A stretch of 64,000 nucleotides of DNA, from positions 2,805,591 to 2,869,590 of the forward strand of contig LN717261.1 in NCBI GenBank assembly GCA_001244265.2, given 5' to 3'. Position 1 is the stretch's first letter. Every line of letters begins with the position of its first letter. The notes beneath the pieces were generated by a model. The model saw nothing but the letters and a program-made list of their open reading frames with translations. It ran no database searches and was not told the DNA's origin. The position numbers and the translations under genes are program-made. Below, piece by piece: positions 1-64,000 of the stretch. The stretch is from Microbotryum violaceum (Eukaryota).

Positions 1-1
1 C

Positions 2-4104
<4,103 letters not shown>

Positions 4105-4473
4105 ACCCAAAGAATGCACCATTTGTAAGTGAACTTTGCACCTTACTACCTGGGTAGATGGGTCAAGCTTTGGGGGTAAACACGCGCGCGTAATTGGTAA
4201 TTGCACCCTTTACTCACGGCATTATGTCTGGATGCTGGTTGGAAGCTTTAAGCCAGAGGGAGATGGCTCGTAACCTGTTTCTCAGACCAAAATTCTCAAA
4301 AGCCATCTGATCAGCGCTCTGGAATCCATGTTTTCGTGAAAAAATACGGAAATCAATCATCTTCGTACCTTGTTAGACTACGGAATTCATATGATCCGCC
4401 CCGCCAGCCGGACATACGGATACGTGCAGTTCCCGCAGCCTACGGGGTCGCCCGTGTAAGTGCCTCTGGGAGC

Positions 4474-4675
4474 GGCTTGTATACATGTAAGGATATATCC
4501 GATATTGTAACATCAACATATAACTATTTCTGAATGGTGTCTGCAAGGACTACATGATAGCATGTGCATTGCAAGACTTGTAGTGATTCAGAATTTCTGT
4601 GTCCTTACTGCACCCTTGTATCCTTACATGTGTCAACATGTGTAAGGATACGCCCGCGCGCGCACGTGACATGTG
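4474..4675 (+). repeat. Left TIR of the GCM/USP element
   Basis: Begins GGCTTGTATACATGTAAG, identical to the end at 63441. The body (gatattgtaacatcaacatataactatttctgaatggtgtctgcaagg...) is the reverse complement of 13885-14077. Confidence 0.9.
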
Positions 4676-4843
4676 GAACGACAGGAGGCGCACTCAGCTC
4701 GAAGCCTTTGTTCACATTTGTTCACCTAATTGTCCCCACACCGCCCATCGACGTCAACACCGTGGCACTGTTTCACTTTTGCGAACCAGCCAATTGCGAC
4801 CTCCAGCTTTGTGCCAGCAGGCACGGACTCAAATCTTTCATCA

Positions 4844-7330
4844 ATGAGATTGCGGAACCGCCAACTTCCCGACCGTGACGCCGGGCCCTGGACTCGGACT
4901 CGTTCTGGAGCTGGAGACCGGCCCCAATGGCGGACTTCCAAGTCGAGATTCAAAGTCCCAAGCATCAAACGCCAATCAACGGTAGTAACCAATCGTCGAA
5001 TCAGGAAAGGAAACGGCCAGTCGGTCCCCGAGTCGGCAAACTCAGCGCATCCTCAGGATGATTCTGGCGACCTTCAAGCTGAAGCATTGACTTGCACGGT
5101 GTCCGCACCGCGGCTATCGAAATCCCTGACTCGAACAGGAGAATTTCCTATCACCGATCGTACAAGCGACTTGCCTAACCACATCAAGTCCGCAGAGGAC
5201 TGCGAGGAGAACTGTGACAATTATGTGGACAATAAGCACAACGATCACAAGGACGACCATGACAATGACTCACCTTGTTCCACTCGGCTCGCCCACAACA
5301 CTCCCTTCCACCACACCATCAAGCAAGAGAAGTCAACAATGCCTCTCCTGTGCTCCCAGAACAGCGATCCCGGTTGGCCGTCGCTGCGCAGTCAAAGCAG
5401 TGTTGAGAGTGTGAATTCCGCTTCTACCCTCCAAGTCGGCTCGCTTTCACCAGCATTAGCTCCGAACCTCTCCCGTCTAAGCGTTTCACAACCCAAGGCT
5501 ATTCCAAAGGACAGCTCTATTCTTCCCAAGCATCAACATACGACTCTTAAGCTTGAAGGTACGCCACATGTGTTGTCTAGATGGTAGGCCATCGGTAACG
5601 TGGCAAGGTGCGCGCCCGGAGGCTCGATTGATTTTAAGGCAGTGGATTAGACTTAGTGTCTGAATGGATTATAGTCTTGCGCGTGGGCCTATGCCTTCGC
5701 AAAGCAGACTCCCTTGTTTATCTTTTCTTTAATCACTCGTTCCTCGACTATCGGTTCTGACACTGCGCTGCGTATCATCCTACCGCTGCCACCTCTATAG
5801 ATGGTGCACTTTTACATCAACATGCGCTCTCCCAGCCTGCTTAACAAACGGCTTCACTGAAAATTGATATTGTCCGCTTGCCTTTCTTAGTGTTGATGGT
5901 CAACTCTGATGTTTCCTTGAAACCTCTCTTGGCGACTAACGTGCCGATGATATTTACGCTGTTGGTGTCCATCAACTTCACGGAGACAGAACATTGTTTC
6001 GTCTATCTACGAGATATTTTGGAAGAGGTTGCTGAGCTAACTGGCCTGGCTCTCCAAGGTATGCAAGACAAGATTAGATTGGTTCCCAAGCAATGTTGAC
6101 AGGCCACTCAGCCAGTTACTAACCGTTTAATTCGGCGACTTATCTGTGCCTTTGTACAGAGGACTCCTGCTTCGACCACTGGGTGGTCAACAACGCGGCT
6201 ACGTCATCTACTCACTCGACTCCATGTCTTGCCTCCTGCCGGTACGACCAACTCGCAGCATTTACTGCTGCGACCGACTCTTCGGACAAGGTTCTCGGGT
6301 TGACCGGCTTCGTACTCGACATCGACTCATTGCCAGCAGAAGCAACCATTACCTTGAGAGTGCGTATAGCTTCATGAGTTGACGGATTCTACGTCGTTGA
6401 GCTTTAGTCGCTGAGCTGACTCTTGATTGCAAATGTCACAGGTCTACGAGCACATCAAGGCTCGACTCCCATTCGTAAATATCACTACAAGACCTCAAGG
6501 CCGGGTAGATGCCCCTGTTCCAAGTGGCGCACCTTCTGCTTCCAAGCACAACTTGCTTGTCAGGGAAAAGCGTGAAGCATCTCCAAGCGACAGGATCTCC
6601 GGCAATCTACGTCCGAACACCGAACCATACTCAACGGATGACAAGCTCGTCAACAGTGAAGATCATGCGAATTTACCAACATATAGTGAAGGAAGGACAA
6701 CGATGACGGACTTGATGCTCGAAGCATACCCACAAGAGATTGTTCTTGATCCTTGGCGGCCCAACGGGACTTGGGGCGGCGTCCTCATTGTTCGTATGGA
6801 TCCAGGCTCGAGCGGTGGCTTGTCACACATGTGGGCTTTCTCGGCGTCATCATCTCGAACCGATTCGAAAGGGCGATGGAAAAGGCCGCGTTTGGATGCA
6901 AACGTCGAGTACAGCAAGTACAGCAAAAGACGTTGCATGGGCGTGTTTGTCTGTTGTGATCAATCATGCCCTGGCAAGCGTCGACCTCACACATTGCTGT
7001 CGACAGCGAGTAGGTCGAAGTTGTTTCAGGAGGAGACTCCACAGCTCGTCACAGGATGCCCCAAAAAGGCTGCAACCCGCAAGCACCTCGCTCCAAAGGT
7101 TGAGAGGCCTTCAGACGAGTTACCGCCATGTCCAATCACAAGCTGTAACGGACCGATGAGGCACATCCTGTGCTCCGCTACGATTGCCCGAGGGCAGCGT
7201 GAGGAATGCCCGGGGACATATATATCTGGCATTTAGGGTACCATTTGCATCCTCCGCCCCCGGTATCGCGTCCGTCCCCGCAACATCTGGAAGAGCTGCG
7301 ACAATTGCGTAAAGCCGCTCCACAAGCATT
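4844..7330 (+). pseudogene. 5' part of the element's multi-exon gene: low-complexity N-terminus then a GCM-like zinc DNA-binding domain, truncated by copia-2
   Basis: ORF 6427..7236 has RRCMGVFVCCDQSCPGKRRP...CPITSCNGPMRHILC. After a 1-nt shift in a G run (~7212) it continues WHLGYHLHPPPP, matching the GCM pattern CLGVVVC..RP..CPNCDGPL.LIPC..KGEHDHP. Confidence 0.7.
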
Positions 7331-7667
7331 TGTTGTGGGAAGTTAGTAAAGGGTCAGCGGTCCAGAGGGACTTGTGGCATTGGGAAGTTGGCGCGCGCGT
7401 GGCGCGACGCTGGATGGAGGCAGATGGCGGTGTGGCGTATTGATTGGACTCAGAGGTGGCTTGCACGCGGATACTATCTAAGGCTCTGGTCTCGTTCACT
7501 CTCTCCTTCTTCTTTAATACACACTCGATATCTATCTCGCCCATTCGCCTGCTACAAGTTGATTGACCTTGGCGATACTCTATCTCACAATAGGTCATCT
7601 ATCAACGCCGTGTAGCTACAGCGAATCTTCATTCATTCATTGGTACTCCAAGTCCAAATCCACAACT
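7331..7667 (+). repeat. 5' LTR of copia-2
   Basis: TGTTGTGGGA...ATCCACAACT. Direct repeat of 11848-12184 with about 10 substitutions. Confidence 0.95.
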
Positions 7668-7676
7668 GGTTATGAG
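7668..7676 (+). promoter_or_regulatory. Primer binding site GGTTATGAG (half initiator-Met tRNA, Ty5/copia hemivirus type)
   Basis: Directly follows the 5' LTR and matches the known Ty5/copia PBS core. Its ATG (7672) also opens gag. Confidence 0.8.
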
Positions 7677-10600
7677 TTCGACGACTACCACCAATGTATC
7701 GAATGAAGGGGACGTCAAGATTACCATGCTCGTAAAGATAACTACGAGCTGTGGTCGATCCGAGTCGACGCGTTCCTCGAAGGTCGTGGCTACAGCAGTG
7801 TACTTCAACACGGAGCCGAACGACCATCGAGTATGGATGTGCAAGCATGGAAGACTCTCCATAACATCGACCCAAGTCTAGAGGAGGGCAAGGTCCCGAC
7901 TCTAATCACCAAGTGGGATCGTAGTGCGCGCGCGATCATCATCTCGTGCCTCGACGATTCGAATCTCAAAATGGTCAAGAGCAAGTCGCTCTCAGCCAAA
8001 AACATCTGGGAGAAGTTGAAACAACACCACGAAGGGAACGCCGATCCGTTCAAGATTCGCACGCTACTCTACGAGATTTCGAATGCGTTGTACGATGAGG
8101 ACACCAACCTCGGCGAGTTTCTCCAGGGCATCACGGACAAGGTCGATCAACTCGAAGATCTCGGGCAAAAGTTCAAGGATGAAGCCATCGTCGCGTTTAT
8201 GCTTCAAGCTCTACCTCCCTCATACGAGATGCTCAAGCAAGCTATAAAGCTCAGCGATAAGTGCTCGGTTGACTACGCCGTCAATCGACTTACCGACGAG
8301 TACAGTGAACGCAAGCTCACTGGCAAGTACGACAAATTACTCAAGAACGCGGGAGCGTTAGCGGTTCGCGAAGGCACGCAAGTCAAGCGTGATCCGAACT
8401 GCATTTGACGTGGTTGCAAGGGAACCGGTCATTACCAAATCGATCCGGAATGTTCCAAGTACGATCCGAACGCCAAACGCGGTCGTAACAAGAACCACAG
8501 CAACAAGAAGAAGAAGCAACATAAGCATTCCAATGGATCTGCGGATTCGGAGGAGTCGGCTTCTTTTGCGTTGGTGGTCAAGTCTCTCGAGGAGAGCCAT
8601 TCGCTTCACATCAACGTCGCGAATAGGGTGTCACAGAACGACCAGAGTGAGATCTGGATCCTGGACACCGGTGCGAGTCAGCACTACGTCGGCAACGCAA
8701 GTCTGCTTACCGACCGTCAACATGGAAGTCTGAACGTTCAAACCGCAAGCGGTCAGGTAGTACATTACGACACGTATGGTACGGTACGGTTCAAGTCGAG
8801 AAGCGGGGCCTCGCTCTCACTTTCGAACGTCTACCATCTCCCGGGCGCTCCGGTGAACCTCGTCTCGACTCGTGCTCTATACCGATCAGGAGCTAGTTGC
8901 GGATGGGAAGATGGCAGGGATGTCATGACGATCAAGATCAAAGGGCTGACCGTAGCAAAGACGCTGAACGGTACCGGTTACACCCTCGACTTTACGCGCA
9001 TTGTTGAGGACCAAGCTCATGTTGCAACTCGTGCGACAGTGGGAGCGCCTTTGATGGAATGGCATCGTCGCTACGGCCACATCGCCGTGAGCTCGCTCAA
9101 GGAGCTCGTCAAGTCAGGCGCTGTAGATGGACTAGTTCTCACCGACGAGAAGGTCCACGACTGCGAGCCCTGCATCAGTTCCAAGTCTCGCGTATCGAAG
9201 TTCTCCGAGTCGGTTACTCATGTCACCGACGTCCTTCAACGCGTATTCATGGACATCGGATTCGTCGCAGAAGATCAAGTCCATTTTCAAGGTCGAAAGG
9301 CGTACCTGGCTATTGTAGACCAGTACTCGACTGCGAAGTGGACATTTCCGTTGAAGACCAAGACGGCCGAAGAAGTCACTCGCGTATGGATCGCATTTCG
9401 ACAAGGTGTCGAGAAGATGACTGGTCGCAAATCAAGCGCGTTCGCACGGACAATGGCAACGAGTTCACCAACAAGTTCATCGGCACAGATTTCCAAAGTC
9501 AAGGAATTCTACATGATACCTCAGCACCGTACACCCCACAACAGAATGGAACGGTCGAACGCTTCAATGGCTCGTTGATGGTGATTGTTTGTGCGGTCCT
9601 TGCAGCCTCCAAGCTGTCCTGGAAGTACTGGTCTTATGCGATGGAGTACGCCACGTTCGTCGCGAATCGGGTCCTACACTCCAAGTTGGATGGCAAGACG
9701 GCTTACGAAGATTTCTACGGAAAGAAGCCCAAGGTCTCGCACTTTCGTCCGTTTGGATCGACCGTCTTCGCGCAAGTCCCCAAGTCGAAACGCTCTAAGC
9801 TCGAGCCGACTTCAGTCAGGGGAATGTTCATCGGGTATGACAACGAGTACAACTATCGCGTGCTTGTCGACTCCGATTCGGAACACAAGGTAGTCATCAC
9901 ACACGACATTGCGGTCTTGAACCTACAACCAGAGGAGGTCCGTGCACCGGAGGTCACGACTTTGCTCGAGGGGCCAGATGAAGATGTGGGTCCCGTCTTG
10001 GAAGGCAACGACGCCGGAGACGAACTTCAGGATGAGGTTGCTGTAGAGCAGATAGCCCCTGCTCGTCCGAACCGTCCTCGTTGGGAATATGGAGATCCCG
10101 CGGTTAGGGGTCGAAACCCAGGCAGGTTTGAGGAGATCGACGCAGGCAACGAGATTCATCAGCGTACTTGTGGCCAAAGACGCATCGCGGAACAACAAGG
10201 TCTCTTTGTCACAGATATACCCGAACTTGATCCCAAACCACCCATCATGTCTGGCTATGCGATGATCAGCACGGATCGACCGGCCGTACCCAGCAGCTAC
10301 GAAGAAGCGATGAATAATGTCGAAGCGGACAAGTGGAAGGAAGCTATCCAGGACGAACTCAATGCGATGGATCGTCGTCAAGTCCTTGCAGACTCGGATC
10401 TTCCCCACGGTGCTCGCGCTCTCGGGTCGAAGTGGGTTTTCGCTTGTAAGGAGAACGCTCAAGGAGAAGTCATTCGTTACAAGGCTCGATTGGTCGCGCA
10501 AGGTTTTGCACAGCAATCTGGCATTGACTACAATGAGACTTTCGCTCCTGTTGCTCGCTCTACGACGATTCTCTTTCTCATCGCCATCGCTGCATCCCAA

Positions 10601-11863
10601 GGACTGTGCCTCGAACAATTCGATTACGACTCAGCGTTTCTGAACGGAACGATGACGGAGATGGTCTACATGAAGTATCCCAAGGGTTGGGATCGTCCTC
10701 AGCTTGGCCAAGTCCTTCGTCTTGTCAAATCAATGTATGGAACGAAGCAAGCTCCTCGAGAATGGAACTCGGCAGTCAACAAACTCATGGTCGCTTGTGG
10801 TTGTGGTTACTCGCGATCTGACGCCGATTCATGTCTTTACGTCAAGTGTGTCGAGGAGATGTTCATCTACATTACTCTTTACGTCGATGATGGACTCGCT
10901 GCCTCGAACGATCAGACGTTTCTGGATTCGGAGATCCAAGCTTTCAACAAGGTGTACCAACTCAAGCGACTTGGTCCTGTGAAGGTGTTTCTCGGTCTCG
11001 AATTCCTGCGCTCGTCCAAGTTCATCTTCGTGCACCAGTCCAAGTACATCAGGAGCCTTGTCGCTACGTATGGCGGAGATCACGGATCGAAGCACCCAGC
11101 AAAGGTCCCGATGGAGCCCAGGTTGAACATGGAACACTCGGCGGAGCTGTTCAACGACATTGCACTCTACCAGTCAGCAGTGGGAGCTTTGCAGTATGCT
11201 GCGCATCGTGCTCGTCCAGAGATTGTCACTTCGGTTCGTGCAGCAGCTTCCAAGGTTTCAGCTCCTACCCAGGCCGACTGGATCGCGGTGAAGAGGATCA
11301 TCCGCTACTTGCAAGGTACCATTGACTGGGGACTCAAGTACAACCTCGAGGGTTCGACTGTGTTCGAACTCTACTCAGATGCCTCGTGGGGAGACGACAT
11401 GTTGACTGGCAAGTTGATAGGAGCGTTCGTCTCGATCATGGCAGGCGCAGCAATTTCTTGGCAGAATAAGCAGCAATCGATGGTTGCGACTTCGACTACT
11501 GAGGCCGAGATCTTGGCTGCTTCCGCGACAGCAAAGGAGGCCATGTGGCTTCGACGCCTGGCTGCGGATCTCAAGATTCAACAGCCTGGATCTACACTTC
11601 TCTGGGAGGACAATCAGGCGGTGATCGCGATCGCACAGAACCCGGCTCATCATGGTAGGACGAAGCACTACAGTGTGCATCACTTCTACATTCGCGAGCG
11701 AATTACGACTGGCGACATTCGAATCAAGTATTGCAAGACAGGAGCCATGACTGCGGATCTTCTCACCAAGCCGCTCGCTCGCAACTTGTTCGAACTTCAT
11801 CGTGATGGATTGGGGATGGTATCCCTTGGAGCCTTGACCAGTGGGAGTGTTGTGGGAACTTAG
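7672..11863 (+). pseudogene. copia-2 gag-pol, broken by frameshifts (~7731, ~9428) and a stop (8406-8408)
   Basis: ORF fragments 7672.., 7833..8408, 8571..9578 and 9059..11863 are colinear with copia-1. RT LYVDD is intact. Confidence 0.93.
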
Positions 11864-12184
11864 TAAAGGGTCAGCGGTCCAGAGGGACTTGTGGCATTGG
11901 GAAGTTGGCGCGCGCATGGCGCGGCGCCGGATGGAGGCAGATGGCGGTGTGGCGTATTGATTGGACTCAGAGGTGGCTTGCACGCGGATACTATCTAAGG
12001 CTCTGGTCTCGTTCACTCTCTCCTTCTTCTTTAACACACACTCAATATCTATCTCGCCCATTCGCCTGCTACAAGTTGATTGACCTTGGCGATACTCTAT
12101 CTCACAATAGGTCATCTATCAACGCCGTGTAACTACAGCGAATCTTCATTCATTCATTTGTACTCCAAGTCCCAATCCACAACA
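11848..12184 (+). repeat. 3' LTR of copia-2
   Basis: TGTTGTGGGA...ATCCACAACA, preceded by PPT-like AGTGGGAG. Confidence 0.95.
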
Positions 12185-13360
12185 AGATGGTGTTGAGCCT
12201 CCGCCCTCGATATTTGGCACTCGAGCTATGGGATGCGATTCGCGAATACACAGCATTGGCTCGAAAGTTTGATATGAAACCGGCGGCGAACGCAATTGAA
12301 GCATACACACAATTACGAGAACGGATGATTTCCACTGTGGTTGGGATGTCGAAAGAGCGCGGAAGCCATTTTACAACTCCATTTAAGCGGGGGAGTTATA
12401 GGCAGCCCAGTAGTCAGTCAATCACTTAGCGAACTCCGCCCTCCCAAGACGATTAAAACTGGACGCTAATCATCACTTTTTTGGCAGACCTGGCTCGAGA
12501 CACTTCGCTCGTTCACCGTCGATCATCCGGTTCTGCCAAGCGCTGTCACGTTGAATGATCCCGACCGAACTCTCGTCGAATTACATCTTCAACGAGCCGG
12601 GTATTGCACTGCCTGCAACTGCATTCAGATTGAGGTGTCCCCAAGACGACAGTTTGTGGTTGACTGGCCCCTTCTCATCTCAAGTCTCCACCTGCCTTCG
12701 CATTCGCTGGAAACGTTGTCGGACGTCCTCGCCTCAATCGTTGGGCAACCGTTGAAATTGTACACAGAGGCAAAGAACTCAGGCCGTCGGCATCACAAGC
12801 GCAATTGCACCGGAGGCTCTTACGTGCAATTCGTTTCAATCACCTCGCTCCCCCGTGTGATTGTGATCAACATCAACAATATTTACCCGGAACATCCACT
12901 GGCCCCAACTGAGCTACGCTTCGGTGTTTCGGACCAAATGCCAGAGATGGTCTGGCGCCTTCGGTCAGGAGTGTACAACATCAACAATTCACATTTCGTT
13001 ACGAACGCGACGGTTGGATACGGGCAAGAGGCCGCATGCTATCATTTCGACGCCATCAAAGGCTCTCTCGCTAGGCCGATAGGGGACAGGAACGCTGGCG
13101 GATTAGTTTCCGTTCTTTTCTACGAGCTAGAAGAGGAGTCATTGAACTTCTTGCAAGCCTTCAACCTAATGCTAACGCGGCAGTGGCACGAAATGTGGAG
13201 TCTATACCATGAGCCCTCCGATCCTACCGATATCGGCATTAAAGTGTCAAGTCTACCACCCAAAGGGACTCTTGAAGAAGGACAAGGTGTCTGGAAGATG
13301 GAAGACATCAGGAACTTTGCCACTCGCGCTTGGTGCAATTTGGCGCACCGGAGATTATAG
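12185..13360 (+). pseudogene. 3' part of the GCM element gene: C-terminal half of a USP/peptidase C19-like (papain-fold) domain
   Basis: ORF 12551..13360 has CTAC, SLPRVIVIN, WRLRSGVYNINNSHFVTN, YHFDAIKG and VSVLFYEL. These parallel USP LPxxLxI / His box / FDD / AYxLFY. No Cys box is visible. Confidence 0.6.
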
Positions 13361-13366
13361 AAAACG

Positions 13367-13438
13367 AGCTAAATGTCACTAAAAATGCGCTTTTGGCACT
13401 AAAATGCGCTAAATGGCACTAAATTGCACTAAAGCGCG
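13367..13438. repeat. Short degenerate tandem repeats of (G)CACTAAA / ATGCGC
   Basis: ctaaatgtcactaaaaatgcgcttttggcactaaaatgcgctaaatggcactaaattgcactaaagcgc, just after the USP-like ORF stop. Confidence 0.7.
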
Positions 13439-13819
13439 AGTGGCAAAGTTGCTGATGGATGCGTCGGCTTTTTTTCATGAATGCGAGATAGTGAGTGTCA
13501 GGAACGCCAAAAAAGCAGATCAATAGAGCTGACGATGCTCTCCTCTTACAATGTTTTCCAGCGGTGCAGTGCTCCTGGAGGAAATCACAGTGGGGAACAT
13601 TCATGTTGATGGCAAGTTTGACTCACAAAGTTGTGCCCCAGTGGTCCAGTGAAGTTTTGGCCTTGTCAATCACTAATGTAGTGTACAGTAGGGGCTATGA
13701 TAGCGGTCAGCAATAGTATGTATAACTAAACTTAGTGCAAAAATGGGCATGGCGGTACTTTGACAACCACTGGTGTGCGGAAAGAGTCATTTATTCACCA
13801 GCAGCAGCCAGTGCTCTTT

Positions 13820-14148
13820 GCGCGCGAGCGTATCCTTACGCATGTCACGTGCGCGCGCGGGCGTATCCTTACACATGTCGACACATGTCACGTGCGCGCG
13901 CGGGCGTATCCTTACACGTGTCGACACATGTAAGGATACGAGGGTGCGGTAAGGATACGGGAGGTGCGGTAAGGACACAGAAATTTTGAGTCACTACAAG
14001 TCTTGCAATACATATGCTATCATGTAGTCCTTGCAGACACCATTCAGAAATAGTTATATGTTGATGTTACAATATCAAGATGAACAGGTTTGGTTGTGTA
14101 TTGACCTTAACTCATGTGTAAGTATATATCCTTACATGTGTCGTGGCC
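13820..14148 (-). repeat. Right TIR and subterminal repeats of the GCM/USP element
   Basis: Reverse complement of 4474-4675, plus extra GTATCCTTAC/GTAAGGATAC and CACGTGCGCGCGCG units. Confidence 0.9.
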
Positions 14149-14541
14149 GTCGCGCGCGCGGTCTAGGCTGTAACTTTGAGAGTACGCTTGAGGTGCGATA
14201 AACGTGCGTGCGACGTCCGAGTTGCGGCCCCCCAGGCTTCCGAGCGTCGAGCGACGTGAATGCCAACTCGGACGTCGCACGCACGTTTATCGCCTTCAAA
14301 TCCGCCCCCGGCGATGAAGGCACTCGCCAAATCGATCAACAGCCGCCTCGCCGCCTCGGTCGCGACCGGAATCCCATCGATCAAGTCGCCCTTGACTCGG
14401 CTTGGCTGAACTCATCAACTCTGGACCAGCGTCGAGCGAACCAAGACCACATAGGCATTTCAACTTCACAGCGGGTTACAGATATACCACGATCCAAATC
14501 GTGTGCTCTCTAGTTGAAATCTGCCCGCAGTCATCACCTCA

Positions 14542-17500
14542 TCATGCTCGCCCTTTGCCTTTAGCCATCCTTCTCTGTTCAGCCGCAGAGAGCTCGACAG
14601 GGGGTGCGATCGTGACAGACCCCGAACCCACAGCCTTCGACCCTATCCGCGACTGCTGCTGTTGCTGCTCCTTTTCCGCCATCTTCTCGTTGCTATTCAT
14701 CGTCTCACTCGAAAACCTCTGCTGCACCGTCTTGTAATGAAGCATCTCCGCCTTGGACACCGACGGAACCAACTGCAAGAGGCGACATCGACCGTCGGAG
14801 TTAGCAAACGAACAAGCTATTGCGTCTACACCCGACCACACAATCACTCGCCTCGGCAAGAGCAGCCTCAAAATCTTTCTGCAAAACGAGCACTTCGATC
14901 TCGGCCGGAGTGGCCATCTCGGCGAGGTAGTATTGAGGCGTAAGCTTGATGCCATTCGAGTAAGGTGGATTCAAATTGAGTTTGGCTGCGGGTGAGGGAA
15001 GGTCTGTCTTTAGTAAATGCAATGAGACCGAACTACATTCTCATCTCAACTCACTGATGGTATCATCAATCTCCGTCGCCTTCCTCGTCATGGCTTTCAG
15101 CATCGCGTCCGAACACAGCGCGTAAAAGTCGGCGCCGGTGTAGTTGTACGGGCACAACGCCACGACATCCTCGAGTCGAATGTTGGGGTCGAGTTTGAAC
15201 TTGCGTGTGAGGGCCTGGATGATCTTGAGCTGCGCATCATGCGTATCGCTCACGCCAAGGTACAGCATGCGATCGAATCTGTCGCCGCCGGAAAGATGCA
15301 AGTCAGTGAACCGTTGGGCGCAGGGAGAGAAAAGCCTTCACTCACCGACCGGGGCGGAGCAAAGCTGGATCGAGCAAGTCAGGTCGATTGGTCGCCCCAA
15401 TAACAAAAACGTCGCTGCCACCCTTGCCCTCCGACATGCCATCCAACTCGGCCAGCAGCTGAGAGACAATACGATCCATCACACCACCCGAATCTCCCTG
15501 GTTACCACGTTTCGGTGCGACCGAATCCAACTCGTCGAAAAAGATGACACACGGCTTGGCATCCCGAGCGCGTTGGAATACTCTTCGTACGTTGGCTTCA
15601 GACTCTCCAATGTACATGTTGAGTAGCTCAGGGCCCTTGACGGAGAAGAAGTTGAGTGAGCATGACGTCGCCACGGCTTTGGCGAGCAAGGTTTTGCCCG
15701 TCCCCGGTGGACCGTACAGCAAGATACCTGATCGCTTCTTCAGCCCATCAGCGAAGAGCTCGGGATGCTCAAGGGGTAATTGAATCGTATCCAAGATGTC
15801 GCTCTTGACATTAGCTAGGCCTCCGACGTCGTCCCAGGTCACGTTGGGGATCTTGGGGGCGCCGATGCTCTCCGAATACGAGGCCCGAGCTTTGTCCAGT
15901 GCTTTGTTGAAGTCCACAGCCGTCAGCTCCAGTCCGGCATGAGCTACATCTTCGACTCGCAGAGATCTTGCATCCGCCTCGGAGGCGTCGATCGACGCGA
16001 GCGCTCGCTCCGCTGCAGCCGAACCAGCCCGTCGCACCAAATCGACCAGGTCATTCGCCACCAGTGCAGCGGTCTGGACGGCGAGAGCCCGCAACGAAAC
16101 GTCAGGCGCGATGACCGAGGAACGGGTCAACGAACGCAGGATCGTAAGACGCTCAGCTTCGTTTGGTGCTTCGATCGCAATCTCCTCTTTGAATGCACCA
16201 AGAACGCCCCTGGGTAGCTTTTCGATGTCACACGTTGTCGCGATGATGATGACGGGGAATCCGCTCGTCTTCCACCCTTGCCGTGCGGTCGCGAAGCACT
16301 CTTTCAATACAGTGGTCATCGCCGGCTCTGCACGAACATCAAAAGATCGACGAAAACCTCAGTCATCTTCCACGTGTCTGAGATCAATTCGACGATCGGC
16401 GCACCTTGCCCAGTCTCGAGTGCTTGACTCTTTCTCGCCAACGCCTCAATGTTCCGCAAGAGCATGATGCACGGGGAGCACGAGAGCGCATTATCGATCC
16501 TCGCTCGTAGATGTCCCTCCGTTTTGACGTCCGACTCGCCAATCAGGTCGTAGCAATCCAACTCGAGCAAATGTAGACCAGAAGAACGAGCGACGAATTT
16601 GACGAGAGATCGCTTGCCCGACCCATGAGCGCCTTTGACGAGCACCGTCAAGTGCAGATCATAGTCGCTTGTCCCAGGTCGCAGAGACGCTTTAACGTAT
16701 TCCAGCAGCCGCCAGGTTGGTGTTCCCTCTTCCAAGGCGGCTTTGTCTGACTTGGCAGCAAACGAGTCGACTATGGGTGAACATCATGGATAAACTTCAA
16801 CTGGTGGCGACTGCCTAGGCCAACGCTGGGATAACAACTCACCTATCCTGAGATACCCCTCCACGTCCGGGACCAGACTATGCTCAACGCCACTCTGCAC
16901 CAGTTTCGTCATTCGAGGATCCACATGGCAGCCGAACGCGCCTAGGTCCAGTAGCTCCGTCAGCTCATCGCCCCCCTCTGCTCGGACCTCTGTCGGAGGC
17001 GAGAGCTCTAGTGACGTGATGACGAAATAAACGACGGCGGTAGGAACATTCAGGGACGCCGGTAGCCTTTGGAAAGTAACGGAGATTGTTGAGCGTCGTC
17101 AGAAAAGAACCTTCGGTCCCGCGCCCAGAAAGGGCTCCGTAACTCACTCGACCTCATCCTCATCTTCTGCGGCTGCTCCTTCGCTGAACCGAGCCATATC
17201 CTCACAGATGCCGACGGCGATCACGTCGCCCTTCTTCAATATCCGCTGTCGATCCTTAAATAAACCTTTGAGACCGTCGAGGAAGAGGGACTGGTACACT
17301 CGATGCACTGACCGGGGTGATGCGACTCGGGCTACAGTGACAGAGGAGGCGAGAGGGAATGAAGTCTGAAAGGGGAGAGCGGCAGGAACGAGTGTGACCG
17401 TCTTGGACGGCAAGGTGTGGAGAAGTGTCGGGGCGAACAACGCAACAGGTGCCCTGCGAGTCGTACAGGGTCGTGTGTTAGCCTCTTGGTACCATGAATG

Positions 17501-19163: not shown

Positions 19164-22100
19164 TCAATCACCATACGTCGATGGCAGCTTGGGTACAGCA
19201 GGAGCGCCATGGCTTCTCCCCAATCGCGATGAAGATAACTGCTTTCCGCCATTGTTGAGAGGACGTCGCTGCAAGCTCCCACCGACAGCTTTGCCGCCCC
19301 TGCCTTGCTGCAAACGCGTGCTCTCTTGCTGCAACGAAGCTATCGTCGCAAGCTGTTGGGCAATAAAGTCACTCGTGCCAGAGCTGTACCAGACCAATCG
19401 ACTCGTTGCTCAGTTAGTCCGAGTTGAAGGGTCACTCTAAGGAGTAAGCTACTCACTGCATCCTCAGGATCCTCAATATCATCTCGCCACTAGTCGAGGA
19501 CGTCTGCTTCTTCTCGATCTTGCGCGCGCGGATCGTACCCAGGTTGCGTTGCTGATACACCGACTTGGATCGCGATAGCAGCGAGTCATTCTTGCTCAGC
19601 ATGGAGCGTTGCACTGTAGGTCGGAATCGGAGGTCAGTGATCAGCTTCAAACAGCATGAGAAGTCACTGCCGCCGCGACTTACTCGATCGAACCGACTCT
19701 TCCATCAATTGATCCGTGGTCCAGTCCCAGTACATCCTCGCTTCGACGAGTTCTGTGCGAACAGTTTCCCGTAAGTGGACCGCACCGAGCACCGCATTCA
19801 GAATCTCGTTGCTCACCTCGATATTTGGCATTGCGAAGATCCTCAAGCGGGACACCGTCGCCGCTGCTGTGGAAGAAGTTCACCAAGAACTTTGAAACGG
19901 AAAACGGATTGATTGGAGCGCTGTCAGCATTTAAGCCCCAAAAATCTACCGCAAAGGTCCTTCGCAGTACTCACCCCAAGCCACTTGAAGACAATGTCCA
20001 ATTCTTTCTCACTCATCATTTTCAGCGGTGTAGGTCGGTCCGATAGAGGCGGAACGATCAAGCCTTCGATGGTTGTGAGAATGACCTTCCACAGTCTCGA
20101 GATGACGAGATTCCACGCTGCGCAAGGGGTCCAGCACCATCATGAGTTAAGAACATCAACGAAATGGCTCTCAAGGACTCACCATCTTGACTCAAGCTTG
20201 TCTTGAGCGTACCAAAGGTATCGTTGAAGTAATCAAACAGGTCCCCAATCGCGTCCTCAATCTCAAGATCCGTCAACGGCCCTCGACCCTTCTTCTTCTC
20301 ACTCGGCGAAGCCGTAGTCTCATAGTGACCGTATTCCTCGACGGGCGGAATCGTGTATGAAGGCCCATTGATGGCGTCACGGACATAAGCGTTGAGCTTG
20401 CCACCGACTTTGACGACGTCGCCGCGCACCTTATCTAGATCGATGTCAAAGTTATACGAAGTCTTGACGAGCGCTTTGAGGGTATTGCGGGAGATGTAGT
20501 GGCGCACGAAAGGCGACATCTTTTCAATATGAGCGAGGACAGGTTCAGTGGGTGGGATCTCGACTGTACCGATCAGGCGGCTTACCTTGTCGACCATGAT
20601 TCGGACCATATCACTCTCGGCACGCTTGAGCCATCGGAACGCGCGACCAAAGTAAAACTGAATATCATCCTTCTCCCATTCCATACTGATGCGGAACGAA
20701 ATGCGACTGTCAAGTCGACGTCGCTTGGTATCTTCAAGTTGGAACCACAGGTCCTTGGGCATGAAATCGCTGAACTCTTTCGGGTCGAGATGGACGTAAG
20801 CGCAGCCATAGTTGTCGTGGCTCTCTACGAGATTGCGGTTGTAAACCGTCGCACGGAGCCAGAGATCGCCTTTGACTGAGATATCAATCGTCTCATCCCA
20901 TCGTGGGTCGTTCGTATCGTACAACGTTCGCGTCTTGGCCACGCGGTATCCTTGGGGGTCCGACAAAATCAGGAACGGGTCGAGCTTCTTGCGCGAGGCA
21001 CTGTCGTTCGGGGCCAGATTCTCGCCCAGTAGGATCTTGACCGTGAAGAGATACCGCGTGGGCTGTATCACCTGCTGCGGCGCTTCCGTCTGCTGATGAG
21101 ATTCGACGGTACGAGAGACATTGTCGGCATCGAGCGTCGTGTACATGATGTCCAAGAGCTTGCGTGCGGCTTGGATGTTGTTAAGCTTGACACACGTCTG
21201 CAGAAGCAGTTCATCCCGTTGAGTTCAGTTAATCACGAGTCAAAACCAAGGCAAAAGGCCACATACCTCGGGTTTGAAGACAAAAGGCTGAATCTTCTTA
21301 TCCCCTTGCACGACCATCTTCGCTTTCGTGAGCCACGCCGAAGGTCGAGCCGCTTCCGGATCTTGCTCTTGCTCGCCGCGAGGGTACATCTCATCGATGA
21401 ACATTGCTTCCAGCGCACTCGCATACCGTTCGATTGACTTTGCGATGGTTTGAGACAGGGCGGTAAGGTATCGAGCGTTGTCGTACGAGTCGGGCCAGTT
21501 GAGTTTGAGGATGAAGTCCGCTGCGGATCGGCACGAATCGCTGAGGTCGATGATGGAGGATGAATGACCGTCGGCTCCCTCGGGTTCGAACTGGGAGCAG
21601 CGAGGCTGAGCATCAGCTCGTGTTCCGTAGCTGATCCTGATCGAGCACTAGCAACACTCACCGTGTCGTGATGAATGGCCGCCTTCACCCATTCGGTCGT
21701 CTTGGCATCGGTTCTTTGCAGCCATTTCCGGATGTAGGGTTCGAACCAGCTCGAAAATTCAACCTTGAGCGGCTCCCTGTCCAACGAACAAAAGACAAGG
21801 GTAAGTCTTGAGAAAGCCGTGAGAAACTGGTAAAAAAACACGCACTTGGGACAGAAAGCGCCATGCATCCTCTGCAAGGCCAAGATGGCGCGATACAGAT
21901 CCAAGATATCTGCATCATTCGCGCCTCCTTCCCCTTCATTCCTGGTCACCGCGTCCAGAAGAGTTTGCCGCTGCGAGTTGAGGTGTTGGACGAACCACGG
22001 ACCCGCAATTCCCAGGAACAAGGCTGGCGGATCGATCACGCTATTGACATTTCGTAATACGGACGCATCAGCATTGCTTTATTGCCCTTTGGTATGGCCA

Positions 22101-29922: not shown

Positions 29923-31339
29923 GAACAACCACAACAACAACGACACCAGCAATGCCACCCCCGGTGCTATAGCACCTAATCGCCCTCCCGACCCCACCGG
30001 CGTCACCGTCACCGCCCAAACCAAGTCGTACTCCGCGGCCGTCTCCGCCCGTTCCCATGCGAAGACCAACGCCACCCCCGCCACCGCCACGACTGTTGCC
30101 TCCCACCCGATGATTCACAACATCGCCAACTGTGTAATCATCAAAACCCCTCCCGCGACCACCTCCGAGAAAGTGCTCTCAGCACTCGATCACCACTACC
30201 CGGCCCTTGCAGGCGCCATGCCCTGCGTCATCAAGGGACAACACGGCATCCGATTCCCTAAGGACGCCGACATCGCCGACCTGGTCGCGAATGGTCTGAC
30301 CGTTGGAAAGACCTTGTGCCAAGTCGAGAAACTATTCTCAGCCACTACTGGTCTAATTCAATGCACCCTTTCTGGCTTCTTCTCCGATGTAGAGGGCCTC
30401 CGCCTCTTTGATGAGCAGATTGCCGAGTACGGCAAGGTCCTCCTTCGCCGCACTCATTACATTGGCAAGACTAGGCACATCTCTGGGTGTATGACTTTGT
30501 TCTTGCCCTCGGGGACCCAAACAAATTGCCTCCTGCATCCATCTCCATTGAACGCGACGGCGTGACCGAGCGTATCCCGCTCAGGATCACCGGTGGCATG
30601 CGCCACTGTGTTTTCTGCCGTTCCGCGGCCCATGTCCGTAAGGACTGCCCCGTCGCCCCGGCGTGCAAGTCGTGCGCAAGCACCTCGCACGCCAGCCAGC
30701 ATTGCCCGGGCCGCCGCTTCGCGTCGAGCCCCCAGGGCACTCCCGAGTCACGTGCCGCGCAAGCCTCCACCATGACCAAAGCCCCCCGGCCTCCAAGTCG
30801 ATCCCTGCGCCACCCGCGCCCGACCGCTCGTTGAAGACCAAAAAACGTCGAGTGAACCCAGATCAGGACCTGGCTGCCCAGCCCCAAGATCCATCTAACA
30901 GGGCTCAGCCTGAACCCCTGTCGGAGACTCCTCGCCCCGGTTTCTCCTTCAATTTCCCTCCCAACTCCGCCCCCTGCCCGCCTCCAACCAGTCAACTGCC
31001 CCTCCCCTCGTTGAAAAATCCTCCGAGTCCCCCAGCTCGGAGACGACCCCTTCGCCCCCAAGCCCTGCTCCGGCCACACCAACGCCAAAGACGATCATCA
31101 CTCGTTCCCAGTCAATTGCTGCCTTCTCCACACCAGCCACTCGTGAAGACCCGCCCACTCCGCCTGCCCCCGAAGCCTCCGAGCCGAACCCCCGGCCCTC
31201 CTCGCCGTTGCCCTCAGCGATCAAAGCCCGACCCGATGCCACCGACGCCGACGAAGATGCCGAAGAAGAAGGCAAAGACCAAGAAGCACCCCCCGAGGAC
31301 GTGGACGACGTTATGGAGCAAGACGATGAGCACAATTAA
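29921..31339 (+). pseudogene. L1 ORF1 (gag-like, two CCHC zinc knuckles), frameshifted as assembled
   Basis: CVFCRSAAHVRKDC and CKSCASTSHASQHC. The acidic C-terminus ends at TAA 31337-31339 and overlaps the ORF2 ATG. Confidence 0.85.
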
Positions 31340-34300: not shown

Positions 34301-34894
34301 GCTTTTCGAGGACCCGATGGCGAGGTGATGACTCCGTCTTCGTTTGTGAACGCGTCCAAACGCCACCAAGCCTTCCTCTACCCTCCTATCCTCCCTCTCG
34401 GTCATCAGAGGGTTTTCTGTCTCCCCGAGCAACGCTGGAATGCCTGGTGGAAGGCGCTACGCAAGATTCGCAGGGTTCATTCGGACGCCGAAGACACGGC
34501 CCACCTCCTCTCCCTAGGTTCACTTCATCCAGGTAGCCAAATCGCTTCTCCAAATAGCCGTTCTCTCCACAATCGATCTACCGCATGTGTCATGTGCCTG
34601 TCGGAGGCTCCGGAGACCCTGGCACACCTTGCGGTCGGTTGCCCGTTTGCCCGCCGCCTCTGGTCTGCGCTCACTCCTATCCCACACCCCGACTTTGTTC
34701 AGTTCGTGTGCCCGGTCGTTTCTCGCTCGGAACGCCGACCCGTCGAGCTGCGTCTACTCTTCTTCCACGCGATCTGGAAGCTCTCTCGTCGCCGTCGATT
34801 TTCGTCGGATCCTCTGGAGCCGATCGCCGAAACGGCATTTGAGGAGCTCCGCGCGTCCATCCAGGAGTCCAAGGGACGACTGGTTTCGCTGTAA
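31326..34894 (+). pseudogene. L1 ORF2 (AP endonuclease, reverse transcriptase, C-terminal CCHC), frameshifted as assembled
   Basis: AANVQSI, LLSET, SIYAP, GGDWN, RRLDRIY, SPGPDGLPVEFY, DFEKAYD, QGDPLAPSLF, LFADD, CVMC..ETLAHLAVGC. Confidence 0.93.
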
Positions 34895-37778: not shown

Positions 37779-38085
37779 GCTAATGAGATTGACCTATTAT
37801 TAGGGAGTACTTGTGCAATCGCCCACAGAGCTGTCTCTTCTAGCCTCCCCCCGCTCAGCGCAAAATCAGACCCGCCTCAGTTCTAACACGAGCACCAACT
37901 ATTGTAACACACAGTAACACATTCTCGAATCAATCTACGACATTTGTATCAGACAATGGGCAGGCATATATGGAATCGCTTCAAGTTCTGACCTGACAGG
38001 CTACTTCGAGGGACATCCTGACTATAAGCCCCGAGGCCTTCGTTCGGACGCTCGAATCCGCACCAACATCCCCGGAACCCGGCAC

Positions 38086-39386: not shown

Positions 39387-39574
39387 GGCACCATGAGTGC
39401 CAATTCACCAGTTAGGCAATGACCGTCTCGAGTTTTCCGTGAGCGTGTGTAGCCATCTAGCTTGTATGTTATGTCAACGGAGATCCTGCATTGCAACCAT
39501 GATTCACCCCGAGGGTACAACGCACTCCGAAGGCGGAAATTCTTGTTCAATTTTTAACCTTAGGGCAGGGCGTA

Positions 39575-40368
39575 GATACACTACAACAGAGTCCCGCGCC
39601 TCCGGAAATGAGGAAGCGGTATGCGACGACATGCTTCATCAATTCTAGGACACTCTTAGCAAGCACTGTACAACCGGCGTGGCGATGTGTACCCGCCGGA
39701 GGTACACACGACCGGTGCCCTCTCCAGCTGTGTACCCCTGGGGTTCCACGGCTCAGGCGCGGTCCGTCGCCGCCGACGGCCTTGCTGACTGCACTACAAC
39801 AAACTTCCACGCCCCCGTTCAAAGCTCAGGATGTGTCTGGGGTTACGGAATGAAATAACCTCTTGCGACGGGACCGACGAAAAATTTGTTTGCTACATCC
39901 GACTTGCACTCTGAAAAACCCGCAAGGCCAACGCACTTCCCTAGCTGAATTCTTCGTTCGAATCAGCTTCCGAGCAGAGCAGAGCGAAACTGCACTACAA
40001 CGAACTTCCACGAACCCGCTCAAAGCCCAGGATGTGTCTGAAATTACCGAAAGGATTCACCTCCCGCCGTTGGAGACTCGTATATGTTATTATACAGTGA
40101 TCTGCCACCGGTGACCGACTTTGCACCCCGGGGGTACACAAGGCGCAAGCGGGAAAGCGCCTGTGTACTCCCGGGGGCACGCAGGACTGGTCCACCCTTC
40201 CGCTGTGTACTCCCGGTAATGATCACACCCCGCGCGCCGAATGACTGTGTACCCCCGGGAGTACACAGCTTTGTCGGCGGCACAGGCCGGGTCCCTCGGG
40301 TTACACTCTTGTACTCTTGTCGCGCGCCGACTCTGTGTATGTGTACCCCCGGGAGTACACAGCCCCTA
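39575..40368. repeat. Cluster of palindromic TGTGTAC-CCC(C)GGG-(A)GTACACA motifs and a ~60-bp duplicated unit; probable DNA-transposon subterminal region
   Basis: Motif copies at ~39686, 39730, 40122, 40162, 40204, 40246 and 40340. actgcactacaac..ctcaaagc.caggatgtgtctg occurs at ~39788 and ~39989. Confidence 0.7.
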
Positions 40369-42412: not shown

Positions 42413-44220
<1,808 letters not shown>

Positions 44221-44337
44221 TAGGCGATACATCTTTGTAGAGAACCTCCGTCCTTCTTCTTCGTCTTTAGCTTGCTTTTTCTACGTCTTGTACACTTGCC
44301 CAAATTCATGCTTAGGTGCCACCACAGTTCCACTGTT

Positions 44338-62058: not shown

Positions 62059-63440
62059 ATTAGTAAACAAGTTAATCTTTACTTATCATACTCGTAATGC
62101 TTGATTCATTTGTAATCACTTTCGCGGCGGTTCTCTCGCTGTAATCGGGTGCGATTTTCACATGCAATACAGTACAAGGCTAAACAAAAAACCTAATATG
62201 ACATCTGCTACTCAGAACTGCTCTAGACGCGCATACAAGGCACCTATCGGATGTGGTGGCTGTGCCCGATGATGGCCAATGCTTCATTCTGTCTGGGGCC
62301 AATAGAGCGTGTCAACGACCTGCTCTATGTTTGAGACTTTAGTACTAATAGCTAGCAAGCAGCCGAGAGAGAGCGATTGACCCAGACCTGCTGCTATGGT
62401 AAGCTGTCGGGGACATTGTCAGTAAACCGCGAGCGAGTCAGCTGAGCCCCTGACTCCAAGGCTCTGATGCCGAAAAGCGACCGAGCGGCTCGAAGATGAA
62501 CCGGCGGTGACTCACGCTGGGCTATGAAATGCATTTTGTATGATTGGTGTTCTGTACGAAACTAGTTGATGGCCAGTGTATGGCCTTGAGCCGTCAACAG
62601 CCTGGCGGAGGCGTAGGAGGCTCACTATGGTGTCCAAACAAATCTAACTACGACAGAGATGGAGAATTGACAAACCTCAGCACGAACATCAGCAAAGCTA
62701 AGCGACAAAAGGAGTGAAGAAGAGCTTCAATCGAGGTCGAAGGTGTGGGACGAGAGGGAGAGACTAACCCAAATCGGCACAGGGGCTAGCCAGTCGGCCC
62801 ATCTGGGGAAGGAACATAAAGCCCACCAGAGAGCAAGTCAGCCAGGCAAAGTATTGCGGTCATGGATCGAAGATTCGATAAGTGCAGAGTGAAGCACATC
62901 ACACACTGTACAGTCAAGAGTCGAATGGCAACGGGCGGGAGTGCGTAGACAGGAGAAGTCCCGCCCGTTGAGACAGGAGAACCGTGCACAACAAGGGTGA
63001 CGACGCTCCGGACGGTGGGTCGGGGAGCCCGTAAGGACCTTGTCGTTTGTTGCTCACCTGATGACTCGGTTGTTCAACCCGTCCCGGTGGGTTTGACGAG
63101 TGGTGGATAACCAAGTGAGGGTAGTAGTAGCATGCAGGCGAGGTCAAGTCGAGTCAGGTCGACCATGAACATGGCCCGTCGGTCGCACCATCAAATCGCC
63201 CGTACCAAACATGCCCATGGGCAATAGAGTACGAAGGCAAGAACAGTCCTTCATCATGAGTCGAGGCTAACCGGTGAGTAAGGGTCAGCGGACGTTGCCT
63301 CGCCGATGATGACTGGGGACCCTGCGAGCGCGTGAGTGGAGCAGAGGCAAGGACTGTTAAGACCGACTTGCGTCAGCCGTCTTGTCGTGTCTCGGCCTTT
63401 CTCCTCCTTTCTCGGCTTGTCCCTGCTCATGCTGGAGCTC

Positions 63441-64000
63441 GGCTTGTATACATGTAAGAAAATATCCTTACACATGAGTTAAGGTCAATACACAATCATC
63501 TTGGTATTGTAACATCAACATATAACTATTTCTGAATGGTGTCTGCAAGGACTACATGATAGCATGTGTATTGCAAGACTTGTAGTGATTCAAAATTTCT
63601 GTGTCCTTACCGCACCTCCCGTATCCTTACTGCACCCTCGTATCCTTACATGTGTCGACATGTGTAAGGATACGCCCGCGCGCGCACGTGACATGCGTAA
63701 GGATACGCTCGCGCGCAAAGAGCACTGGCTGCTGCTGGTGAATAATTGACTCTTTCCGCACACCAGTGGTTGTCAAAGTATCGCCATGCCCATTTTTGCA
63801 CTAAGCTTAGTTATACATACTATTGCTGACCGCTATCATAGCCCCTACTGTACACTACATTAGTGATTGACAAGGCCAAAACTTCACTGGACCACTGGGG
63901 CACAACTTTGTGAGTCAAACTTGCCATCAACATGAATGTTCCCCACTGTGATTTCCTCCAGGAGCACTGCACCGCTGGAAAAAATTGTAAGAGGAGAGCA
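63441..64000 (-). mobile_element. Right end of a second copy of the GCM/USP element (continues beyond the window)
   Basis: Near-identical to the reverse complement of 13536-14140, with the intact GGCTTGTATACATGTAAG terminus. Confidence 0.92.

Follow-up and report, generated by a model that had tools for sequence, protein, structure and literature searches.

A stretch of 64,000 nucleotides (nt) from contig LN717261.1 of Microbotryum violaceum, hereafter the window, holds between positions 4473 and 14149 what we read as the dead remains of a Mutator-like element (MULE) with an internal deletion. It probably belongs to a family of the Microbotryum anther smuts whose full protein combines a zinc finger, a DDE catalytic core and a divergent C-terminal tail resembling ubiquitin-specific proteases (USPs). 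This reading is carried by long terminal inverted repeats (TIRs) shared with a further end in the window, by full-length gene models that hold finger, core and tail in one frame, and by the remnants of the same gene in the window copy, which are interrupted by a nested retrotransposon and a small inverted-repeat element.

Element ends, full-length relatives and the MULE assignment

The arms of the element are about 209 nt (left) and 345 nt (right) long and pair in three blocks, 4501-4614 with 13963-14076 (114 nt, 96% identity), 4599-4675 with 13882-13958 (77 nt, 94%) and 4626-4681 with 13833-13888 (56 nt, 93%), in agreement with the TIRs of about 200 base pairs (bp) that an earlier reading by a model from the letters alone (the sequence-only reading) had proposed. 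The right arm differs from the left by indels of 45, 20 and 43 nt and contains extra copies of a 43-nt unit. Gapped alignment identified a common terminus at 4473 and, on the other strand, at 14149, which consists of CGGC, six variable nt and ACATGTAAGGATATAT. A third end, belonging to another copy in opposite orientation (copy 3), starts at 63440 (63441 in the sequence-only reading) and is complementary to positions 13536-13888 with 99% identity over 353 nt; further complementary blocks reach 97% over 203 nt and 92% over 49 nt. In the alignment the terminal hexamer is TTGTAT at the left end and in copy 3, and CACGAC at the right end. The 9-mer GTAAGGATA occurs 14 times in the window, always within one of the three ends, the chance expectation being about 0.49. 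The third end and the related gene models described below bear out the earlier claim of a repeated, TIR-bounded family, and the assignment of the interval to such a DNA transposon family is supported.

Contigs of four public sequencing runs (X1, X7, X16 and X17) were aligned on window positions 12150-14450; X16 and X17 are RNA by a guessed label only, none of the runs being recorded as RNA. Contigs from other copies depart from the window sequence just past 14149 with continuations that differ between X7 and X16, which fixes the right terminus to within 1 nt of the 14148 given earlier. The word depth of the X1 contig was 37.6 in the flank, 537 in the element interior and 2500-2900 in the TIR, values that do not equal copy numbers. 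The 9 nt outside the left end (4464-4472) and outside copy 3 (63431-63439) are similar, CTGGGAGC versus CTGGAGCTC, and stand directly ahead of the common CGGCTTGTAT; this likeness may reflect a target preference, or the terminus may lie a few bases beyond 4473.

A protein search with the 269-residue frame 6427-7236 returned six matches of similar length and eight longer ones with identities of 88-98%, and 13 of the 14 are named Microbotryum silenes-dioicae, the exception being P0023, which assigns the window to this fungus or a close relative. Full-length gene models are P0009 (1513 residues) and P0010 (1561 residues), and P0022 spans residues 543-1561; all three are predictions. Finger, DDE core and tail lie in one frame in P0009 and P0010, as do DDE core and tail in P0022. 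To judge from these sequences, autonomous copies would encode a single protein of about 1500-1560 residues, in which an N-terminal region is followed by an insert-containing WRKY/GCM1-type zinc finger and the DDE core; a linker of about 270 residues, Ser/Pro-rich and disordered, would then lead to a C-terminal domain that is conserved and about 440 residues long. A MULE family with a fused extra C-terminal domain is well supported by the predicted proteins. Intact relatives had been expected to supply the DDE domain and the protease Cys box, and the full-length gene models carry both, the latter as a Cys-box-like SCWIDS motif.

Within residues 540-830 of P0009 and P0010 we found the motifs TDAHNTYF (D565), VVDYSSAQ (D636), GCAFHF (C689, H692), WIKWW and NAVESSH (E760; P0010 numbering). 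P0009 has 20 extra residues before the catalytic Glu compared with P0010, and its WIKWW lies 30 residues ahead of that Glu. The two Asp residues are 71 residues apart, the second Asp and the Glu about 124-144, and the C-x-x-H motif follows the second Asp by 53 residues. MULE and hAT transposases are described as sharing a (C/D)(2)H motif, which follows the second Asp by 15-45 residues, and a Trp before the Glu (PMC5499845). In the full-length relatives, read by eye and without alignment to reference MULEs, the DDE triad is accompanied by both the (C/D)(2)H motif and the upstream Trp of this description, and the long TIRs with subterminal repeats correspond to MULEs as well. A search of the ESM Atlas with residues 270-860 yielded seven kinds of named cluster with PF10551 (MULE), PF04434 (SWIM), PF04500 (FLYWCH) or PF21056 (ZSWIM1-3) at scores of 0.89-0.94, the PF10551 neighbours serving as a lead only. 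From DDE motifs, ESM Atlas neighbours, long TIRs and subterminal repeats we conclude that the family very probably belongs to the MULEs. Its core (D565, D636, C689-x-x-H692 and E760 in P0010) would then perform cut-and-paste transposition, as in the rest of that group. A protein search with the DDE region of P0010 returned the same family only.

Several results speak against this picture of a MULE with a fused tail. No Pfam family was found at E 0.1 in P0007-P0011 and P0014, and neither PF10551 (MULE) nor PF00872 (Transposase_mut) was matched at E 10 in P0010; as the tail is likewise without a Pfam match, there is no curated model behind either assignment, MULE or USP. AlphaFold2 gave an unusable model for residues 260-833 of P0009, covering finger and DDE core (five sequences; mean predicted local distance difference test, pLDDT, 32.0). 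The sequences flanking the element, CTCTGGGAG and TCGCGCGCG, do not match, and no 8-10-bp target site duplication is visible in the window copy, which may be a recombinant. Finally, no transcript spanning DDE core and tail was seen in the run contigs examined.

In the zinc finger, at residues ~286-391, the cysteine cluster CMGVFVCCDQSC is followed by a basic insert of about 55 residues and then by CPITSCNGPM and W-H-x-G-Y-H-x-H (W384). The Pfam GCM model matched the first cysteine cluster below significance (E 0.99, 9.8 bits versus a cut-off of 25). MULE transposases are known to carry an insert-containing WRKY-GCM1 finger, and the ligand pattern found here (Cys cluster, basic insert, CPITSC, W384, H-L-H) fits that family as it is described (PMC1702500). 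The sequence-only reading placed GCM in the WRKY-GCM1 fold linked to MULEs and stressed the coupling of a GCM-like domain with a USP; the finger, however, is no novel coupling, being most probably the ordinary insert-containing finger already known from MULE transposases (PMC1702500). The finger would probably bind the GTAAGGATA repeats in the 210-345-nt TIRs.

Structure and origin of the window copy

The remnants of the transposase gene were mapped by tblastn of P0010 (1561 residues) against the window, and their positions are collected in Table 1.

Table 1. Positions of element parts, nested insertions and the third family end in the window (residue numbers refer to P0010)
Feature	Position	Strand	Details
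Left TIR	4473..4681	+	terminus CGGCTTGTATACATGTAAGGATATAT; subterminal GTAAGGATA(C) repeats; from inverted repeats, gapped alignment and 9-mer positions
Exon 1 of transposase gene	5896..6057	+	residues 1-54, 94% identity
Exon 2	6159..6362	+	residues 55-122, 97% identity
Exon 3 remnant	6439..7330	+	residues 121-417; zinc finger ~6934-7250; frame switch inside
Nested Ty1/copia LTR retrotransposon	7331..12184	+	stands in place of codons 418-1191
Exon remnant	12185..12412	+	~residues 1192-1267; tblastn match 12185-12408
GT..AG intron	12413..12487	+	75 nt; from X17 contig junction and border sequence
Tail exon	12488..13303	+	residues 1268-1539, 97% identity; tblastn match 12488-13318; rear two thirds of USP-like tail
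MITE insertion	13304..13457	+	154 nt; cuts off last 22 codons
Final 22 codons and stop of ancestral gene	13458..13526	+	residues 1540-1561; match 13458-13523, 95% identity
Right TIR	13805..14149	-	three 43-nt tandem subrepeats at 13805-13923; 45-nt and 20-nt segments absent from left arm
End of copy 3, opposite orientation	63440..64000	+	continues beyond window edge; from inverted repeats, sequence and alignment

Exon 3 matches P0010 in two pieces, residues 121-383 at 6439-7224 (95%) and residues 378-417 at 7209-7328 (92.5%), the reading frame switching from frame 1 to frame 3 within 7209-7227. The two upstream peptide strings reported earlier are found on either side of this switch, CMGVFVCC...CNGPM...ILC in frame 1 of 6427-7236 and WHLGYHLHPPPP in frame 3 from 7227. 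The downstream string SLPRVIVIN...NSHFVT...YHFD...VLFY is present as well, in the open reading frame (ORF) 12470-13360, where the tail exon encodes CTAC...C as a putative zinc ribbon, LPRVIVININN, NSHF with the His, YHFD with the Asp, and VLFYE. For residues 418-1191 of P0010 there was no tblastn match anywhere in the window. DDE core and Cys box both fall into this supplanted stretch and are indeed missing from the window copy, as had been stated.

The supplanting sequence carries two long terminal repeats (LTRs) of 336 nt, at 7331-7666 and 11848-12184, that are 98% alike and have the ends TGTTG...CAACA. Between them Pfam detected Retrotran_gag_2 (2.9e-23), Pol_BBD (3e-13), gag_pre-integrs (5e-11), SH3_retrovirus (2.7e-18), rve (0.033) and RVT_2 (2.8e-56) in the order of copia elements, and two TG...CA LTRs enclosing gag, integrase and reverse transcriptase identify it as Ty1/copia. 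Its 3' junction is fixed by contigs of other copies from X1, X7 and X16, which encode ...PPLGD ahead of 12185, as the full-length protein does, so that element sequence resumes at 12185. The copia insertion lies between the two coding pieces, which are therefore not contiguous. This point had been passed over by the sequence-only reading, together with the copia element itself, which takes up half of the interval, the insertion in the tail exon and the lack of Pfam significance for both GCM and USP.

Further lesions were found downstream. Relative to all four runs the window copy has one extra base at 12403. The X17 contig joins 12401 to 12488 via 10 letters identical to the end of this exon in other copies and thereby removes exactly the intron 12413-12487, which is retained in the contigs from X1, X7 and X16; this junction is a hint of a spliced transcript, the RNA label of X17 being a guess. 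The insertion at 13304-13457 consists of 152 nt plus a 2-nt GA duplication and has 24-nt TIRs, CATCAG[G/C]AACTTTGCCACTCGCGC, and these inverted ends together with the duplication identify it as a miniature inverted-repeat transposable element (MITE) rather than an intron. Most copies are free of it, the high-depth contigs from X1, X7 and X16 joining 13303 directly to 13458. A 2-nt duplication other than TA is unusual. With the frame switch, the large deletion, the 1-bp insertion and the MITE the window copy is dead, and it could at best be mobilised in trans. An upstream ORF of 285 residues at 4730-5587, rich in Ser, Thr and Pro, was rejected as coding sequence as it had neither a Pfam match nor similarity to the N-terminal extension of P0017. 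Two deletion derivatives, P0015 and P0017, have kept the N-terminal 80-140 residues and the C-terminal tail and have lost finger and DDE core, the same pattern as in the window copy.

The copia element is flanked by codons 417 and 1192 and has no duplication at its borders, where the 5-bp sequences GCATT and AGATG do not match, and a single insertion can therefore not account for the structure. Two routes could have produced it: either two copia elements inserted into one MULE copy and recombined with each other, or two different MULE copies, each with a copia element, recombined. The second route, in which the window copy would be a chimera of two MULE copies joined by copia-copia recombination after insertion at different sites, comes close to an even chance in our estimate. 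It would explain why the mismatched copia flanks lie 774 codons apart in P0010, it would also account for the mismatched flanks of the MULE, and it agrees with terminal hexamers that differ between left and right end while left end and copy 3 share the same one. Moreover, LTRs of the family of the nested copia occur at other sites in other copies, after residue 148 in P0006 and near residue 470 in P0008. Two copia insertions inside one MULE followed by recombination would, however, yield an identical internal structure, and the mismatch of the MULE flanks could equally stem from an adjacent rearrangement. Other copia elements are fused into the gene models P0007, P0012, P0013 and P0023; the frequent fusion of copia elements or solo LTRs with gene models of the family may reflect a targeting preference of copia or nesting in regions rich in transposable elements (TEs).

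The C-terminal tail

In P0010 the tail (residues 1121-1561) contains, in this order, GPWSDDSCWIDSTLIALL (C1152), SSPVTWLETL, GYCTACNC, HHKRNC, LPRVIVININN, NNSHFVT (H1436), YHFDAI (D1455) and VSVLFYELE. When 1.84 billion representative proteins were searched with the 296-residue frame of the window, seven matches were obtained, five of which are TE-type relatives; on inspection we took the other two, P0020 and P0021, for unrelated repeat proteins. A second subfamily, with 46-56% identity to the window ORF and 41-51% to the P0010 tail, is made up of P0017-P0019. In an alignment of seven tail sequences from the two subfamilies H316, F334-D335-A336 and 27 more columns are invariant. The Cys box is present in both subfamilies wherever the region exists, being intact in P0010, P0009 and P0018; in P0018 it reads HSCWLDS. 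Candidate catalytic residues are C1152, H1436 and D1455, with His and Asp found in all seven sequences and Cys in the three with an intact region. We take the order Cys...His...Asp, with about 284 residues and a Cys-rich insert between Cys and His, to fit USP (peptidase family C19). C48 proteases have the catalytic order His-Asp-Cys, and OTU and VTD proteases an Asp-x-His; the tail, its own class being putative, differs from the transposon-borne members of all three by this order and spacing.

The ESM Atlas returned 30 matches to the tail, 15 of them unnamed clusters (two of the three displayed are basidiomycete) and 15 named ones, all of which are PF00443 (UCH). These PF00443 neighbours reached scores of 0.90-0.93 with 129-162 shared features; in a calibration such scores occurred for 4-10% of shuffled proteins, and true family members typically shared 170 features. 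An unconstrained merged alignment (E-INS-i) with 65 USPs placed C32, W33, D35 and S36 of the tail on the columns of the USP Cys box, the Cys being present in 65 of 65 USPs, and C187, C190 and C254 on the zinc-ribbon Cys columns (Cys in 53-54 of 65).

The reference for this and the following comparisons was assembled by searching viral contigs with a DNA pattern of the Cys box, which gave 120 loci and, after selection by length, 65 ORFs; all 32 ORFs scanned were PF00443 at 1e-26 to 1e-65, and the set consists of giant-virus USPs only. A number of results count against a USP. The 162 shared features of the tail fall short of the 170 of true members, and its His box did not come to lie on the USP His column of the merged alignment. 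Pfam found no USP family (PF00443, PF13423) at E 1-10 in the window ORF, P0010, P0017, P0018 or five tail fragments of the window. In the PDB a sequence search with P0010 had no relevant match, the best being an amylase at E 0.26, and with the tail profile there was no match at E 10. The AlphaFold2 model of the tail (seven sequences) was unusable at a mean pLDDT of 30.4; Foldseek with this poor model had no match at E <=0.001 and no USP among the matches listed, a search that the quality of the model renders meaningless. By hhalign the tail and the 65 viral ORFs were aligned with a local P of 0.29. Against a hidden Markov model the P0010 tail was beaten by 201 of 1000 shuffles and P0018 had no match; the P0017 tail was beaten by 28 of 1000, which we do not count as significant. 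Conserved columns agreed in 16 of 59 cases, a value reached by 31 of 101 column-shuffled controls. For four family members z values were -0.47, -0.65, 1.31 and 2.14 in an ordered-block test and -0.52, -0.34, 1.88 and 1.60 in a high-information-block test, and in two block tests 3275 and 3401 of 5000 shuffles scored at or above the real sequence.

No alignment statistic backs the USP label. The power of the tests with viral USPs is probably low, given that the block consensus of the reference looks rich in Lys, Asn and Ile and that every member holds the exact motif by which it was retrieved. Since the MULE core is likewise invisible to Pfam, we weigh these misses lightly, though they are still misses. 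Motif order, spacing and language-model neighbours together point to a USP-fold cysteine protease of very divergent sequence, which we consider rather likely. That the tail is an active deubiquitinase, an extremely divergent member of C19 that serves as the C-terminal domain of the MULE transposase itself, goes a step further and is put forward tentatively, as the sequence makes it possible but somewhat less than probable. The earlier claim of a MULE-related family with its own deubiquitinase accordingly stands as far as a MULE with a fused tail in full-length gene models is concerned, and the identity of the tail as USP/C19 is not proven. A tail of this kind might, speculatively, remove ubiquitin in cis from the transposase itself, or from chromatin or repair factors where transposition takes place; stabilisation of the transposase or escape from silencing as its role is equally speculation.

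Alternatively, the tail may be a lineage-specific domain of another or unknown fold that shows USP motifs by chance and has no deubiquitinase activity, in which case the reading of the interval as a dead MULE stands unchanged. We regard this as possible but somewhat doubtful. Every alignment-based test was negative or inside the range of the shuffles, and an ESM score of 0.93 with 162 shared features is in the range of chance matches or distant relatives, one third of shuffled proteins obtaining ten matches of a single family; at about 50% identity between subfamilies, three conserved residues are also weak evidence. On the other hand, the named ESM neighbours are all PF00443, the very family that the sequence-only reading had arrived at independently from motifs, and Cys box, putative zinc ribbon, LP-strand, His, Asp and LFYE stand in the order of USPs. 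The failure of Pfam is uninformative for this fast-evolving family, the MULE core of the same protein having been missed equally, and the composition of the viral reference may explain a low power of the remaining tests.

Host capture in the style of Pack-MULEs, with the USP-like region stemming from a cellular gene, linked to the transposase by automatic gene prediction only and playing no working part in the protein of the element, is unlikely. In its favour, MULEs are known to pick up host fragments (PMC5499845), the parts are connected by predicted proteins only, and the linker is long, of low complexity and modelled with different exons in P0009 and P0010. Against it, no cellular parent gene was among the seven matches from the representative proteins, and in three independent gene models (P0009, P0010 and P0022) linker and tail stay in a single frame. 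Between the subfamilies no other part of the protein is as well conserved as the tail (46-49% versus 33-41% elsewhere), and the tail is retained in the deletion derivatives P0015 and P0017.

Surroundings and comparison with known transposons

The window copy sits inside a nest of retrotransposons. A second, diverged Ty1/copia element at positions 1-4170, on the plus strand, shares several blocks of 181-300 nt with the nested element at 74-83% identity, and its LTR-like pieces at 3847-3898 and 4038-4090 resemble the LTR of the nested element. Another copia, on the minus strand at 56566-61589, has 272-nt LTRs that are 98% alike and matches to RVT_2, rve and gag_pre-integrs. Frames at 30642-34894 with matches to RVT_1 and zf-RVT, 60% G+C and a strong negative GC skew look like a non-LTR retrotransposon. 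Two inverted-repeat pairs (49 nt, 92%; 41 nt, 95%) surround about 4.4 kb without a convincing long reading frame at 37667-42064, which may be a non-autonomous TIR element, and 1.28 kb between perfect 46-nt inverted repeats at 52084-53363 is probably a young non-autonomous DNA transposon. A nested, MITE-like palindrome of 366 nt at 44338-44703, with arms of 78 nt (94%) and 45 nt (96%), lies just downstream of a DAHP synthase gene (43258-44223). Further host genes between the repeats encode an AAA ATPase (15342-16358), a C2-domain protein (20058-21224) and a Lon protease (45551-48385; Lon_C, AAA and LON substrate-binding domains).

Among known MULEs, elements such as Muta1 of Aedes aegypti and the fungal MULEs with insert-containing WRKY-GCM1 fingers resemble the Microbotryum family in having TIRs of hundreds of nt with subterminal repeats, a zinc finger N-terminal to the DDE core, a C-x-x-H motif after the second Asp and Trp residues before the Glu (PMC5499845, PMC1702500). 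The catalytic residues D214, D283 and E419 of Muta1, with W401, are spaced by 69 and 136 residues, compared with 71 and about 124-144 here (PMC5499845). The Microbotryum protein is about three times as long as Muta1, owing to linker and 440-residue tail. From known MULEs it differs further by its C(2)H motif, which at 53 residues past the second Asp is outside the quoted range of 15-45 (PMC5499845), by the missing Pfam match to MULE or Transposase_mut and in that no 8-10-bp duplication is visible in the window copy. The family is young, with copies 90-98% identical, and seems to be transcribed and spliced; for Muta1 a yeast transposition assay has been used (PMC5499845). In the accessible text of a preprint on Microbotryum transposons MuDR/MULE elements are lumped into 'TIR elements', with a mean of 0.42% of base pairs, and are not described individually (10.1101/2022.08.03.502670).

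The tail shares with cellular and giant-virus USPs (PF00443) the succession of Cys box, helix, CxxC...C, LP-strand, His box, Asp and LFY, and differs from them by a shorter loop ahead of the His, other residues around the Cys and the lack of significant profile similarity. Should it not be a protease, Microbotryum simply has a MULE family restricted to its lineage whose extra domain is unexplained, and the window copy amounts to ordinary TE debris inside a nest of retrotransposons. If the tail is a USP, it is a new variation on the known theme of protease-carrying transposons. Ulp1 (C48) occurs in KI-MULEs and Ginger1; OTU domains are known from Ginger1, Helitrons and some MULE transposases, and Helentrons carry VTD deubiquitinases (PMC2836005, PMC1702500, PMC9741609). 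In these elements a papain-type cysteine protease of the ubiquitin or ubiquitin-like (UBL) system is joined to the C-terminal side of the transposition enzyme or encoded along with it (PMC2836005, PMC1702500, PMC9741609), an arrangement that the tail, as a putative protease, would share. A role of such proteases in transposition or in escape from host control has been proposed and is unproven, and what ubiquitin or SUMO proteases gain their carriers is still unexplained (PMC2836005, PMC9741609).

The statement of the sequence-only reading that the usual cargo is Ulp1 or OTU and not USP agrees with the papers cited above, and needs to be qualified by one known fusion of C19 and a transposase, XP_001314237.1 of Trichomonas vaginalis, which combines transposase_11 with Peptidase C19 (Bao et al. 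2010, PMC2836005). This protein likewise associates a USP/C19 domain with a DDE transposase; compared by description only, its transposase is of the IS5/Harbinger type instead of a MULE, and its C19 domain, unlike the tail, matches a curated model (PMC2836005). No fusion of a MULE with a USP is described in the full-text literature searched, which excludes Repbase reports and subscription journals. With a working USP tail in Microbotryum the Mutator superfamily would gain its first USP, and a further class of deubiquitinase or UBL protease would join Ulp1, OTU and VTD among those recruited independently by eukaryotic DNA transposons; this would imply that such elements recurrently need ubiquitin to be removed where they transpose.

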